Below are positions 42,930-48,466 of a stretch of DNA of 64,000 bases, piece by piece; the first letter of the stretch is position 1, and each line of letters opens with the position of its first letter. The position numbers and the translations under genes are program-made. Origin of the DNA: Rhodospirillales bacterium (GTDB taxonomy: Bacteria > Pseudomonadota > Alphaproteobacteria > Bin95). The notes beneath the pieces were generated by a model. It saw nothing but the letters and a program-made list of their open reading frames with translations. It did no database searches and was not told where the DNA came from. The stretch is taken from contig JAYQLI010000035.1 in the NCBI GenBank assembly GCA_038143065.1, forward strand, positions 2,528,894-2,592,893. Reading direction: 5' to 3'.

Positions 42930-43238
42930 ATGGGCCACCAAAGTGCGCACTACCTGAAGCTCAAGGGGAAGACTTATTACTTCTCCCGGCGAGTCCCGAA
43001 AGTTCTCCAGCAGTACTCATCAGTGCCCAGAGTCGAGATTTGTCTTCATACAAATAGTCGATCTCTCGCCCAGCGCCAGGCGCTATTGCTGAGCCAGGAA
43101 CTGGAGGATCAATGGAGCATCCTGAAAAGAAGGCAACGGCAAGACCGGGTCGCGCGTTTCCTAGGGAACCCACTGGATCAGTTAAAAGTGCAGACACCAG
43201 TTGCCAGTGATGCACCGTTGTTGTCTGATCCGATGTGA
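42930..43238 (+). pseudogene. N-terminal DUF6538-type domain of a tyrosine integrase, truncated
   Basis: YLKLKGKTYYFSRRVP...ICLHT...A...A...LEDQW pattern. No catalytic domain; the ORF stops inside the left inverted repeat. Confidence 0.75.
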
Positions 43239-43328
43239 GACCTGGAAAGAGGCTTTGAGCGTACTTGCGCATGAAGCGCATGTAGTTTGCGTGTAACCTA
43301 CAGCACGACTGAAGTATGTAAGTGCTCT
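43219..43328 (+). repeat. Left 110-bp inverted repeat
   Basis: TGTTGTCTGATCCGATGTGAGACC...GTATGTAAGTGCTCT is the reverse complement of 48357-48466, except at 43258/48427. Confidence 0.97.
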
Positions 43329-43389
43329 GAGAAATACAGTAAGCTGATCTCAAATAGAATTCTTTTACCTGCAATTTACATGCAAGGGC

Positions 43390-45109
43390 ATGACCGTCGT
43401 GATCAGTTTACGTCTCTTCCTCACTATCGGTGTTGCCTTTTTCGTGACCGTTCTTGTTGCTGGTGTTGGTGGTCTAGGCATCTTCGGGTCGATTGAGAAC
43501 GCTCTGACGGTTAAGCGAGAGTTCCAGGCCTACCGTGCCGAGAACGTACGCATAACAGTGACCGACTATTTCGAACGTATCGAGGCCGAAACGAAAGTCA
43601 TCGGCAGTTTAATGTCCATGCAACCTGGGTTGGTCGATGACAACCTCCAGGTGAGTCTTCTATCCGCTCTTGTGAGCAATCTTGAAGGCGTCGAGGACGT
43701 CACCCTAGTTCGCCGAGATGGAACCAACGTAATGGTTTATCTCGAAGGCGAAGAGGTGGAATCAACCCTAAATGGGCCACTTGACCTTGAAAGCCTGGCC
43801 GTAATGCGCAGTGGCAAGCCAGGCGACGAAAGCGAGGGCTACGAGGATCTATATTTCGAGCCCAACGACCTGCGCGCGGTGACCAGCTACACGCTCCATC
43901 TTGAGGATAGTTCAGGTCGACAACTTGGAACCCTATTCATCGATATCGACATATTTACGCTGACCGATTCAGTCGCTCAGGATAGTCGGGCTGCTACGTC
44001 TTCTTGATGGACGAACGCGGTTTTATTATGGCTCACCCGGAACTGAACTCTGGAAACCTGGTTGAGTCCCTCGGCGCCTTACCTCATGTCAAGCACCTGC
44101 GGGACCCGGTGCCCAAAGCGGTGATCGACCAAATGCTGAAAACTGGCACCCCGCCGGAACGGGTCGATACCCCAGATGGAGCATTTCTAGTTACCGTTTC
44201 CTATCTGCCTGGCCTGGGCGATAGTAAATGGTTGGTAGGAAGTGCATCACGACCGCATCCTTGGTGACGCCTATGACCGGGCACAACTGATTGGTGCGGT
44301 TGGGCTTTTCGTTTTACTCGTCGCGGTCGTAATTTCACTATGGGTAGGCAGAAGGATCACCGAGCCAGTCCAGCGCCTCGCCTCGGCAGCTGACGCCATC
44401 CAGGCATTCCAGCTTGCTACCAGGCGGGCGGATTAGCCGCTTTACTGAGCTGAATACAGCCGAACGCGCTTTCCTCGCTATGCTGCGCGGCCTAAACGTA
44501 TTTTCACGGTATGTACCCAAGAGTTTGGTGCGTCGACTGATCCAGCTGGAGGACGAAAAGGACCGAGAAGTGACAATCCTTTTTACGGATATCGCCGGTT
44601 TCACAACGATCTCAACGGGTATGGCACCTGATGATCTAGCTAAAATGCTCAACGAGTATTTCACCATACTGGTAAATCCAGTACTGGCTGAGGAGGGTAC
44701 GGTCGACAAGTTTATCGGAGACGCCCTGATGGCTTTTTGAACGCGCCGGTCTCGCAGCCCGACCATGCCGACCGCGCGATCCGGGCAGCACTCGCCATTC
44801 GAGCTTCAACCGAGACTTTTAACCGTGAGCGCATTGCGGATAGGCGTCCATACTGGGGTCGTATTGGTCGGGGATATTGGCACTGAAGAGCGGCTCAATT
44901 ACACAATCGTGGGCGACCCCGTAAACACCGCTTCAAGGCTTGAAGCTCTCGGAAAAGAAGTTGGCAGCTACCTATGTATTTCTAATGAAACTCGGCAGTC
45001 TTGCAATGGGAATTACCTTTGGCGCCGCATTGGCGAGATAACCCTGCGCGGTCGCAGCGAAGAGACTGTGATCTTCACAATCGATGACGAGACCGAACAA
45101 GACACCTGA
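43390..45109 (+). pseudogene. Membrane-anchored class III adenylate cyclase (TM-periplasmic sensor-TM-HAMP-cyclase), broken into 5 ORFs
   Basis: [50 protein letters not shown]-like RITEPVQRLASAADAI. Confidence 0.8.
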
Positions 45110-45359
45110 CGGCGCAGGCAAGTCGATCAGGGTCTATATGGTTCTATGTCAACAGGGTAACGTTTTTTTGCATCGCGGACCAACATCTGCATTTGGTTCA
45201 AGTCGAGGCAATGAAACTGCGCCCAAAGGCCCACCTTTGCACTTGCGTTGGTGAGCCTCAAGTGGCTCAAAATAGATGTTTCATATTATTCTACAGTTCT
45301 CGTTTGTGGAGAATTGTAGTGCAATCCAGATGACTTTTGTGCATCTAAGGAGAAGACTG

Positions 45360-46720
45360 ATGCAGGACAAGAAGATCGACCGACGATTATTTTTGAAGGC
45401 ATCAGCGGCGCTGTTGGCAGCGGCAGCAGGACTCCCGGTCGGAGCTACCCAAGCCCAGGACTTAGAGGGTTATTCTGTTATCATTGTTGGCGCAGGCTTA
45501 TCGGGTTTGGCCGCCGCGCGGGAGTTGCGCGCTGCTGGGGCGAAGGTAATAGTGCTGGAGGCCAGAGATCATATAGGCGGCCGTCTGCTGACCGACTGGA
45601 CCCTGGGGGTTCCCTTTGAAGTTGGAGCTGGCTGGATTCACGGCTTCTCTGATGAAAATCCTGCCAAGCAACTGGCCGACGCAGTGGGAAGTAAATACAT
45701 CTTTACCAACGACGAGAGCCTTGTTGTCTATTCCGCCGAGGGCAAAAAGCTCGATGGGAACCAGATCGAAGAGATCAATAAGAATTGGGAATGGATTCTA
45801 AAGAACGTCGACAATGAGCTGGAGGTGAACGATCAACGGACCTTAAAACAGGCGATCGACTACCTATTCCCACGAAAGTTGCAATCTATTGAGGCACAGT
45901 GGGCACTTTCGGCCTATACCGAGTTTTCCCGTGGTGCTCCGATCGAAGACTTATCAGCAACGCTCCATGACGAGGACGAGATATTCGAAGGAGCCGAAGC
46001 GATCGCACTAAATGGCTATGATGCGCTGCTTAAGCCAATCGCCAACGGCCTAGATATCCGCCTGGGTGCAGAGGTCGATTATATAGGTTACGACGATACC
46101 GGGGTGGAGGTTGAAAGCAATGCAGGTACATTTGAAGCTGACTTCTGCGTTTGCAGCGTACCACTTGGCATACTGAAGGCGGGTAGTATCGAGTTTGATC
46201 CTGAACTACCTCCCAGCTATCAGAAGAAGATCAAGCAGTTGGGCTTTGGCAGCGTGACTAAGATAGCGTTGGAGTTCGAAAACCCGTTCTGGGATGTCGA
46301 AAAGCAGTATTTTGGTGTGATGACCGAGACTAAGGGGCGCTGGAATTACTGGTTTAACTACCGCACTTTCTCAGACGCCAACGTTTTATTAGGCCTCAGC
46401 GTTGGATCCTACGCGCCAATTGTCGATGCAATGTCGGACGAGCAAATGAAAGCCGATGCGTTGGACGTTTTGCGCGGTGTCTGGGGTGATGCAGTGGAAT
46501 GCTGGCGACCCATTGGTCCACTGATCCGCATACGTTGGGAGCCTACTCATATCCCCGCGCCGGCAATCGCAAGGATGATTTCGACGACTTGGCAAATGGA
46601 GTGGACGATGTGTTGTTCCTCTGTGGAGAGCACACAATTTTCGATTATGCCGGCACCATTCAAGGTGCTTACATGACCGGATTGCGTGCAGCTGAGCGGG
46701 TAATCGAAGAAGCTGCCTAA
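45360..46720 (+). CDS. Tat-exported flavin monoamine/polyamine oxidase family protein (frameshift near 46497)
   Basis: AAGGAG RBS, DRRLFLK twin-arginine signal, GAGLSGL, EARDHIGGR, GAGWIHG, GAYSY, GEHT, GTIQGAY. Confidence 0.85.
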
Positions 46721-46800
46721 CCAAGATTTCTAATTCTTATCCATATTTGCGTTTCATCTAGAAGTGCCTTGCGCTAATCGCATTTTGTGCACTGGTTAAA

Positions 46801-46950: not shown

Positions 46951-47166
46951 TACGATGATTATAGGGGTTAATGGCAACCCTTAAAGTTTGATCTTGCAAG
47001 AATTGTACTAATATTGCATTACGTTATATTATTACATAACATTGAGATTATGCTTACGGAGGCGAGTATTTAAATGTTTGAACAAGAAATTCAGACGAAG
47101 GTACACGCCTCACTGAACTCTTGAGATTCTACAAGGTCTCAAAATCTTACATAGGAAATAAGGACT

Positions 47167-48202
47167 ATGAAAAAGACACTCCTTCGCACAACAAGCTTAG
47201 CGGCTTTAGCAATGGCGATATCTGCGACACCAGCCTCTGCAAAATTTGAGGTAGGTATTTCAGGCTATATGGAGCAATGGTTCGGATATTCTGACAACTC
47301 GAATTCAGCAAACGCCAACAGTGACGTTTTTGATGAAGTTTCCGACGTTTTATTCGCTGTGGAGTTTTATCAAGAATTTGAAAACGGAATAGAGGTCGGT
47401 GGTGCAATAGAGGTTCTTGGTGACCAAGGAGCCGCAGATCAAATCGACGGTCAATCTCTGTATATCGAGGGATCTTTTGGTCAATTAAATGTTGGCACCG
47501 GTGACGGGGCATCTGCTGCAATGCATCTTGGGGCAATTAGCAACGGTATAGGCTTAGATGACGGGGATGCTAGTGTTTGGATAGCTGGTGCGGATGAGGC
47601 TCTCAGCATTACTTCAGCTACATCAAATATAGATGGGGGTGCCAACAAGATTACCTATTATTCTCCGAGAATAAATGGGCTTCAAATAGGCGCGTCCTTT
47701 ATGCCTGACGCCGATGATGTGGACGCTGTCACGCCTGCTACGGCTGGACAAGAGGTAGATGCTCGTCGAGACAATTCGTACTCAATTGCCGCCCATTACG
47801 AGCGAACAATGGGCGATCTTACAATGTCGGGCAGCTTAGGTTTTATGGATGCAGGCGGTGGCGTTGCAGGCAATGAAACTGCTTTATCCGGCGGTATTCA
47901 CCTAGGATTTGGTGGCTTCATGGCATCTTTTGCATACGGCGAGCATGAAGACGACACGGCTGTGTCAGATAAAAACATCTTTGGAGTTAGTTTAGCATAT
48001 TCTGCCGAGGCCGCGGGTGTTTCCGTAGCATACGTCAGAGGTGAGGATAGTGATACTAACGATCAGCAGGATGCAATTGAAGTCGGAGCTTCCTATTCAA
48101 TTGGTCCTGGTGTTACCGCCTCATCGTCTTTGTATTATGTTGAACGAGTTACAGCCGGCAACACAGTAGCTGATGGAAGGCGGGCTGACCTTAACCTTCT
48201 GA
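47167..48202 (+). CDS. Alphaproteobacterial outer-membrane porin (3' end frameshifted; true end probably GGLTLTF*)
   Basis: Signal peptide MKKTLL...ASA, ISGYMEQWFGY, GSFGQL.VG, KITYYSPRINGLQIGASF. The shifted frame ends in a terminal Phe with TGA at 48200-48202. Confidence 0.88.
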
Positions 48203-48223
48203 TCCTTCAAGTTAGTCAAATCT

Positions 48224-48251
48224 AAGGGGTGGCTGCAAAGCTGCCTTTTTT
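48224..48251 (+). terminator. Rho-independent terminator after the porin
   Basis: AAGGGGTGGCT-GCAA-AGCTGCCTTTT stem with a GNRA loop, running into a T-tract. Confidence 0.7.
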
Positions 48252-48356
48252 ATATGGCATCAATCATCACGCCGCATCTTCTTCTTAACGAACGCCTTAA
48301 CCAAACAACAATCGCGCTCAGAGTTAATATGCGCATGATGCGTATGAAGGTTTCGT

Positions 48357-48466
48357 AGAGCACTTACATACTTCAGTCGTGCTGTAGGTTACACGCAAAC
48401 TACATGCGCTTCATGCGCAAGTACGCACAAAGCCTCTTTCCAGGTCTCACATCGGATCAGACAACA
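48357..48466 (-). repeat. Right 110-bp inverted repeat
   Basis: Reverse complement of 43219-43328 with a single mismatch. Confidence 0.97.

Follow-up and report, generated by a model that had tools for sequence, protein, structure and literature searches.

Invertons, shufflons and the dif modules of Acinetobacter combine short recombinase sites with a working recombinase nearby. In the tycheposon-shaped tRNA islands of marine bacteria, as far as the part of the account drawn on here goes, integrations are stacked, integrases are fragmented, extra partial tRNAs are present, and rearrangements, including inversions, centre on the elements (bioRxiv 10.1101/2020.12.28.424599). Template-switch mutations, either quasipalindrome or microhomology-mediated, create or extend inverted repeats, according to the sections of three reports considered here (PMC13100816, PMC8604942, PMC7202029). 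The locus described below lies in a 64,000-nt stretch of a Rhodospirillales bacterium (GenBank assembly GCA_038143065.1, contig JAYQLI010000035.1); this whole stretch is called the window, and its genome G000. The locus is a further case of a tRNA-integrating island, in a tRNA-Phe gene, and its three cargo genes stand between the arms of a 116-nt inverted repeat. We find that the left arm is a secondary, later inverted copy of the right arm that replaced most of the integrase gene. Most likely, it is a rearrangement scar, left either by a templated inverted insertion or by the trimming of an inverted sibling arm.

Like the tycheposon-shaped islands, as these appear in the cited part of their description, the locus has an integrase beside the tRNA, partial tRNA repeats at its boundaries, a pile-up at one tRNA, remnants of elements and niche-type cargo. 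It is unlike them in that the island open reading frames (ORFs) include no replication module or other hallmark gene detectable by Pfam, in the DUF6538 N-terminus of its integrase, and in its host, which is not a cyanobacterium. Moreover, the inversion covered by the same part of that description occurs between identical whole elements and is not an inverted arm copy within one island. Membership in the tycheposons is therefore not a claim made here. With template-switch mutations, in the cases that the cited sections present, the locus shares an inverted copy of nearby DNA, a prior inverted homology of 10-11 nt and the resulting longer, near-perfect repeat. Those cases mostly span tens to hundreds of nt with no gene deletion, whereas here the distance is 5 kb (~590 nt in a tandem or circular arrangement) and ~860 nt of integrase are lost. 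With invertible segments and dif modules it has in common a cargo between inverted repeats and a locus rich in tyrosine-recombinase sites; it is unlike them in its 116-nt arms, which hold no attachment (att) core, and in its dead local integrase. A full-text search of the literature for DUF6538 found no paper.

An inverted repeat encloses the cargo of a tRNA-Phe island

The integrase starts downstream of tRNA-Phe, at 42906, and a repeat of the tRNA 3' end marks the far boundary. Since these 3'-end repeats are 12-13 nt long and lie at the two positions given in Table 1, the island is 42855-48688, 5.8 kb in the 3' end of tRNA-Phe, and it is a member of a family that DUF6538-type tyrosine integrases mobilise. 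An earlier reading of this DNA, made from the sequence only and called the sequence-only reading below, had already placed the locus in a tRNA island. What moves is the entire island, whose att sites lie outside the inverted repeat.

By repeat search, the two arms (Table 1) are 116 nt long, 97% (113/116) complementary and separated by a spacer of 5016 nt. They mismatch only at 43258, 43329 and 43330, leaving a 110-nt core that matches at 109/110, the figure that the sequence-only reading had given. Within 41-51 kb, the runner-up inverted pair reaches 72% over 36 nt, and chance is therefore excluded for the 116-nt pair. The termini read TGT...ACA, and no target-site duplication was found, as the outer flanks ACCGT and GCAAC differ; both points had been noted earlier, as had the cargo-only content of the segment (cyclase, amine oxidase and porin), which Pfam bore out.

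Further copies of the repeat, which the sequence-only reading would have taken as support, did not turn up in G000 or its relatives. A whole-genome search of G000 returned only the two arms of the window pair, and the arm sequence was absent in 60/60 relatives searched. Similarly, a 26-mer of the repeat had no match in genome_contigs (species-representative genomes) or in viral_contigs, an exact 34-mer of the right arm had none in genome_contigs, and a plasmid search with the repeat gave no match.

The repeat is real DNA and not an assembly fold-back. Parts of the region are contained in 20 public runs from nine studies, and four of these runs (X1, X5, X6 and X9, from four studies) were compared with the window; the contigs derived from them are k=31 short-read assemblies, for which a 116-nt repeat is too long to span. 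The junction of left arm and cargo lies inside contigs of X1 (43299-46951), X5 (43279-48347) and X6 (43279-43889), and of X9 too, and the junction of cargo and right arm lies inside contigs of X5 (48319-48406) and X6 (48204-48406). The long X5 contig has 5161 letters and 210 differences from the window, with a cargo that is ~96% identical. X5 contigs end at the mirror-image positions 43279 and 48406, as a k=31 graph would at a true inverted repeat. One X1 contig (43123-43248) joins the integrase to the left arm and reaches 30 letters into it, one fewer than the bridging rule of 31 letters requires. The structure is thus present in other strains. A fold-back or mis-join in an indel-prone metagenome-assembled genome (MAG) would be in keeping with the state of the G000 assembly (52 contigs, 5.5% contamination) and with the small indels that separate the window from read-derived contigs of a 99.8%-identical strain. 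With the inner junctions of both arms in contigs of independent studies, and with breaks that mirror each other as a true inverted repeat requires, this explanation, which the sequence-only reading had named as one that would refute it, is extremely improbable.

The indels do affect how the cargo is read. All four read sets show two bases after 44415 that the window lacks (in X9 at a depth of 20.3 out of 28.7); with them, the ORFs 44242-44436 and 44414-44740 become one open frame, so that at least one of the ORF breaks in the cyclase is absent from every read set. The X1 contig, 99.8% identical, has 75 gap letters against the window over 43299-46951 (3.65 kb). Such differences are small indel errors or private mutations of the window, and the apparent decay of the cargo is partly non-biological. 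The earlier remark that the repeats are better preserved than the genes around them holds only in part for this reason, and pseudogene calls for split genes of this MAG need read support first. Gaps in depth were seen at 46780-47187 in X5, X6 and X9.

The right arm within the conserved island end

A homologue of the right flank of the repeat lies on contig C41 of G000, with an alignment that runs from 23 nt inside the right arm to the att-like core. A conserved 24-mer of this flank led to 13 metagenome loci, and 13/13 match the right end of the island, mostly from ~48444-48449. An alignment of 15 copies shows a non-coding right arm that is conserved across the island family, here called RE; two of the loci, L018 and L025, are one sibling island on two contigs, and homologous RE is also carried by C41 and 11 further metagenome loci. 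From 48444 onward the RE is ~80% identical to C41 and to other metagenome copies, and in 10/15 copies the homology extends through the region of the right repeat arm (R) as far as a palindrome. The order of elements in the RE is the palindrome TGCGCATGATGCGCA/TA (10/15 copies), the right-arm region, two GGCCACCA motifs and the att core.

The sibling island on L018 and L025 is the closest comparison. It is 94% identical to the window over 48310-48670; its RE is unbroken across both 48350/48351 and 48466/48467, and it holds a single R copy. Its cargo differs and encodes a 204-aa protein and a 161-aa protein, the latter read by eye as an HxlR-type regulator, and its integrase stub breaks elsewhere, at ~43070. 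In the arm region, the RE of the window differs from L025 at 5/116 positions. With the RE contiguous and single-copy in siblings, the right repeat arm is the native parental copy, internal to the RE. The RE core reaches a depth of 931 in X5 versus 12 for the cargo, and therefore many islands share this RE arm, which we infer to be the attR-proximal recombination arm.

Other roles were considered for this region. Rfam gave nothing above the gathering score but tRNA in the window region, with no match for the RE, and 0/57 predicted pairs showed a compensatory change in nine RE copies (RNAalifold); an RNA gene in the right arm was rejected on these two counts. A small right-arm ORF (73 aa in L025) was rejected as a gene, being broken in the window and in C41. 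A simple scan found no sigma-70-like promoter in either arm.

Several short motifs were also observed. GGCCACCA has the same orientation at both of its sites in the island; the C41 right arm has three copies, and the pair recurs in sibling L025. In tandem junctions, several integrase stubs end within or beside GGCCACCA, and these motifs may be arm-type binding sites for the integrase. An operator-like palindrome, TGCGCATGATGCG(C/T)A, marks the right arm's inner edge in 10/15 family copies. A variant of the palindrome, TGCGCATGAAGCGCA, lies within the repeat arms, which places it on either side of the cargo, at 48405-48419 and 43266-43280.

The left arm interrupts the integrase

DUF6538 homology stops at 43229, which is 11 nt into the left arm, in agreement with the earlier observation that the left repeat ends the integrase. 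The remnant is 93% identical by tblastn to residues 1-100 of P0001, the closest full-length integrase (387 aa), and no other significant integrase match was found in the window (next-best E at least 0.37). Nor did Pfam or tblastn find an intact recombinase or catalytic domain there. Residues 101-387 are therefore absent from the window.

The junction itself has a distinctive sequence. At this point the relatives carry codons for Leu-Leu-Ser-Asp/Glu (LLSE in P0001, LLSD in P0003), and TGTTGTCTGAT is common to the native integrase and to the reverse complement of the native RE; the right arm reads ATCAGACAACA, and L025 likewise. The microhomology TGTTGTCTGA(T) is found where break and template meet, the feature looked for in a templated insertion. 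A 1467-nt X5 contig is 96% identical to the 5' part of the integrase, tracks the window to 43228 and diverges over the next 1193 nt; it is presumably an intact relative. The left arm is thus fused to integrase codon ~100 through 10-11 nt of microhomology, and since this junction carries the Leu-Leu-Ser codons, the TGT end of the repeat is explained.

The sequence-only reading had offered a decayed integrase as another source of the repeat. This can be retained for the outermost 10-11 nt only. For the rest, tblastx and tblastn against the C41 paralogue and five full-length relatives gave no match beyond 43229-43235. Matches of 'ETW', 'EALS' and 'YLRMK' in the repeat to the integrase were rejected as unsupported, as they need frameshifts.

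At 43258, the one mismatch of the core, the right arm has the L025 state, and therefore the left arm carries the derived state. The X5, X6 and X9 contigs have AC at 43329-30, as in the right arm, and therefore the original copy was at least 116 nt long. In X5 and X6 the left arm is L025-like at 43309 and 43324 (in X9 at 43309 only), positions at which the two arms of the window are the same, a possible sign that gene conversion has taken place between them.

Inverted repeats recur at the ends of related islands

A genome-wide scan of G000 found eight local inverted pairs, and 8/8 are at the ends of islands with DUF6538 integrases. Five of them tightly bracket the integrase (Table 1); these are 57-123 nt long and 92-97% identical, with spacers of 1155-1660 nt. 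One arm of a bracketing pair usually runs from a core like the tRNA 3' end through the upstream region of the integrase, reaching its first codons in the two cases checked (C5 and C12), and the other arm abuts the integrase stop or is near it. From one arm to the other, the C5 unit matches the C12 unit at 90%, and the flanks of the two are different; the bracketed integrase frames are broken in the assembly.

The integrase subfamily of the window has such repeats as well. An inverted 'att core + integrase start' is present on C41 at 2237-2322 and 14681-14765 (86 nt, 98.8%), and the same kind of repeat was found in L028 (76 nt at 100%), L026 (67 nt) and L024 (at least 46 nt), enclosing an integrase together with 0-11 kb of cargo; for L024 and L028, where an arm coincides with a contig end, an assembly effect is possible. 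Contig C34 (3504 nt) ends in inverted integrase starts. Relative to the preceding island arm, the integrase is direct in L026 and inverted in L028, L024 and C41, and therefore both relative orientations exist.

A longer pair was observed on contig C3, at 14173-14602 and 22095-22529. It is 442 nt long and 93% identical, consists of an att core and a right-arm-like part with the cores outermost, and flanks 7.5 kb. This pair is an untrimmed analogue of the window pair in another integrase subfamily.

Outside G000, a bracketing repeat was found in 1/27 DUF6538 loci from 20 other genomes of the class. The single case, L042 (G129:C101), has 75-nt arms that are 100% identical, at 1400-1474 and 2689-2763, around an open 394-aa frame. 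DUF6538 matches number 13 in G000 versus 1-4 in the other genomes with a match. The observations point to an estuarine and marine island family whose ends are unusually often duplicated in inverted form, and this recurrence is a more unusual lead than the single repeat of the window.

The att cores contain a quasi-palindromic CCC(N)GGG. We regard as speculative, and on balance unlikely, the proposal that the family integrase recombines att cores in either orientation, so that stacked tRNA islands are flipped, inserted and excised. If true, the bracketing repeats (five loci here, one other genome and three metagenome contigs), the C3 pair and the window pair would be products or substrates of one process. 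It would also amount to a natural shuffling system for island cargo, in which cargo between inverted arms could be inverted in trans.

Possible origins of the window repeat

We consider it moderately probable that an island arm was copied in inverted form into the integrase by templated insertion, and that the repeat serves no function of its own and is not the sign of a mobile cassette. Both the template-switch route and the lack of function are inferred, while the native status of the right arm, the microhomology junction, the loss of the integrase, the island boundaries and the occurrence of the structure in other strains are shown. One error of replication or repair, in which the template was switched twice, would suffice, giving a templated inverted insertion at a deletion junction. 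The outer end of the left arm would be fused to integrase codon ~100 and the inner end to DNA upstream of the cyclase, and ~860 nt of integrase would be deleted in the event. At a tandem-island junction or in an excised circle, the distance from template to break would be ~590 nt (222 + 364 nt). Template switching extends and homogenises the arms of inverted repeats, in the portions of two reports used here (PMC13100816, PMC8604942). The event would leave behind an island without its own integrase, 116 nt of inverted homology around the cargo that could support RecA-dependent gene conversion or flipping, and an operator-like RE palindrome ~110 nt upstream of the cyclase start.

Several observations weigh against this account. 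Inverted duplications of island ends recur, with 8/8 of the local inverted pairs in G000 at such ends, and a one-off accident does not predict this; the 442-nt 'core + right arm' pair on C3 even has the same polarity around its 7.5 kb of cargo. The integrated island has 5 kb between template and break. The microhomology evidence comes from the outer junction only and not from the inner one, 43334/43335. The structure persists in strains that are ~4% diverged, and the L025-like states of the left arm (43309 and 43324 in X5 and X6, 43309 in X9) call for either parallel change or gene conversion, so interaction between the arms may be ongoing. Finally, the lack of function is an argument from absence.

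Alternatively, the left arm may be what trimming has left of a second right arm in inverted orientation. An island or array would have been flipped or inserted head-to-head, perhaps by the integrase acting on inverted att cores, so that the cargo came to lie between two complete inverted 'RE + core' arms. A deletion between direct 11-nt repeats, one in the integrase and one in the outer part of the inverted arm, would then have removed the 3' part of the integrase, the core and ~220 nt of arm, and a second break would have trimmed the inner side. The C3 pair, with its cores outward, shows the untrimmed structure in another subfamily, and the inverted 'core + integrase-start' repeats of C41, L024, L026 and L028 point the same way. 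The 3/116 differences between the arms are close to the 5/116 between the RE and L025, which would allow the left arm to be a sibling allele instead of a new copy; in X5 and X6 it has L025-like states at two sites. However, this route needs an inversion or inverted insertion, two truncations to 116 nt and a later homogenisation in the window lineage; the inner end at 43334 falls short of the natural RE edge (the palindrome at 48330-48344, and on to 48310), and no inverted core or integrase stub remains in the window. We hold it to be unlikely. Templated insertion is favoured over it, not strongly, because the trimmed-arm route needs more steps.

It is less likely still that the pair is kept for a function, either as a flip-flop of the 5-kb cargo by RecA or integrase, or as a copied piece of RE that supplies the cyclase operon with a promoter or with a site for a regulator (TGCGCATGAAGCGCA). 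Such a role would agree with the retention of the structure in strains of four studies, with arms that are more alike than a strain divergence of ~4% suggests (and with the hints of conversion), and with a palindrome that is conserved in 10/15 RE copies and has a variant 110 nt upstream of the cyclase start. The 3/116 differences nevertheless fit the neutral expectation for so small a sample, neither arm has a sigma-70-like promoter, the window has no intact recombinase, the nearest sibling island has no left copy, and, with all three genes inside the segment, flipping would bring no obvious change of expression. Homologous recombination could in principle flip the cargo, in the manner of the invertible cassette that the sequence-only reading had put forward as one option. 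Finally, the sequence-only reading had proposed a DDE-like, non-autonomous transposon with 110-nt terminal inverted repeats and a transposase acting in trans. Long near-perfect terminal repeats, TGT/ACA ends and a cargo-only content are what such an element would have, but it fails on three defining features, namely termini of its own, target duplication and further copies. The right 'terminus' is internal to an island arm that continues outward in 14 other copies; there is neither a target duplication nor a transposase; no further copy exists in G000, the 60 relatives, the species-representative genomes, the viral contigs or the plasmids searched; and the TGT end coincides with integrase codons. 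A transposon is accordingly a most improbable origin. For annotation, a long near-perfect inverted repeat around cargo beside a tRNA need not mean a transposon.

Island layout, siblings and neighbourhood

The features of the island, together with the bracketed integrase genes elsewhere in G000, are listed in Table 1. G+C is 0.51-0.55 across the cyclase and the oxidase and ~0.45 outside.

Table 1. Features of the tRNA-Phe island in the window, and integrase genes of G000 that are bracketed by inverted repeats
Feature	Position	Strand	Basis
tRNA-Phe(GAA), integration target	42779..42854	+	ARAGORN, Rfam
attL core copy CCCCTGGGCACCA, last 13 nt of tRNA-Phe	42842-42854	+	Motif coordinates
Integrase remnant, DUF6538 N-terminal domain, 110-aa fragment	42906..43238	+	Pfam, tblastn
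Two GGCCACCA motifs within the first integrase codons	42921..42940	+	Direct repeat with 48562-48581
Left arm (R'), secondary inverted copy of the right-arm sequence, att-proximal end first	43219..43334	+	Repeat search, alignment
Junction microhomology TGTTGTCTGAT	43219..43229	+	Integrase relatives, X5 contig, right arm
Cargo 1, sensor adenylate/guanylate cyclase (dCache, HAMP and cyclase domains), five ORF pieces	43390..45109	+	Pfam
Cargo 2, flavin amine oxidase, two pieces	45276..46720	+	Pfam
Cargo 3, Gram-negative porin (Porin_4), intact	47167..48225	+	Pfam
RE, conserved non-coding right arm of the island family	48310..48688	+	Alignments with sibling and metagenome copies
Palindrome TGCGCATGATGCGTA in RE	48330-48344	+	Motif coordinates
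Right arm (R), parental copy, internal to RE and contiguous with it on both sides	48351..48466	-	Alignments
Two GGCCACCA motifs in RE	48562-48581	+	Motif coordinates
attR core copy CCCCTGGCACCA, tRNA-Phe 3' end minus one G; right boundary of the island	48677..48688	+	
Bracketed integrase gene, contig C5	51571-52975		
Bracketed integrase gene, contig C12	65460-66730		
Bracketed integrase gene, contig C3	12849-14188		
Bracketed integrase gene, contig C38	34194-35649		
Bracketed integrase gene, contig C37	12583-14421		

The N-terminus of the amine oxidase reads by eye, from its translation, as twin-arginine-like. The integrase paralogues on C41 and C34 are broken in the assembly.

Mobility of the family is seen in the sibling island of L018, which comes from a relative that is 93-95% identical. 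The flanks of L018 match C35:1891785-1897263 and C35:1897241-1903325 of G000; the island sits in a tRNA gene, whose anticodon reads by eye as Arg(CCT), and is bounded by a 17-nt tRNA 3'-end repeat. In G000 this site (C35:1897241-1897263) is empty, a case of presence and absence with a precise empty site. This sibling island is 2 kb long, and its ends are nearly identical to those of the window island. The idea of exchangeable cargo in the sequence-only reading is upheld to the extent that siblings share their ends (integrase stub and RE) and carry different cargo; those ends are not the repeats. The tRNA-Phe island lost its integrase yet keeps both recombination arms, and it could still move by a sibling integrase.

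Two candidate joints for a circular form of the island were rejected. The X1 joint 48670->42866 has 31 intervening letters that equal the C41 tandem junction, and the X9 joint carries the junction of another sibling.

At the tRNA-Phe site, left-flank synteny is present in 1/9 same-genus genomes (G005), and the right flank of G005 has no counterpart in the window. A neighbouring gene is presumably GcrA-like, as read by eye from its translation, which would point to an alphaproteobacterial host. The DNA beyond attR (48689-50770), which may be chromosomal or left over from an older island, comprises CTTTCCCTAAG, two ORFs (DUF3764-like and SCO4226-like) and a TauD gene split in three. Resemblance to CTTTCCCTAAG is seen in the native DNA that follows tRNA-Phe in G005 as well as in the linker of tandem island junctions.

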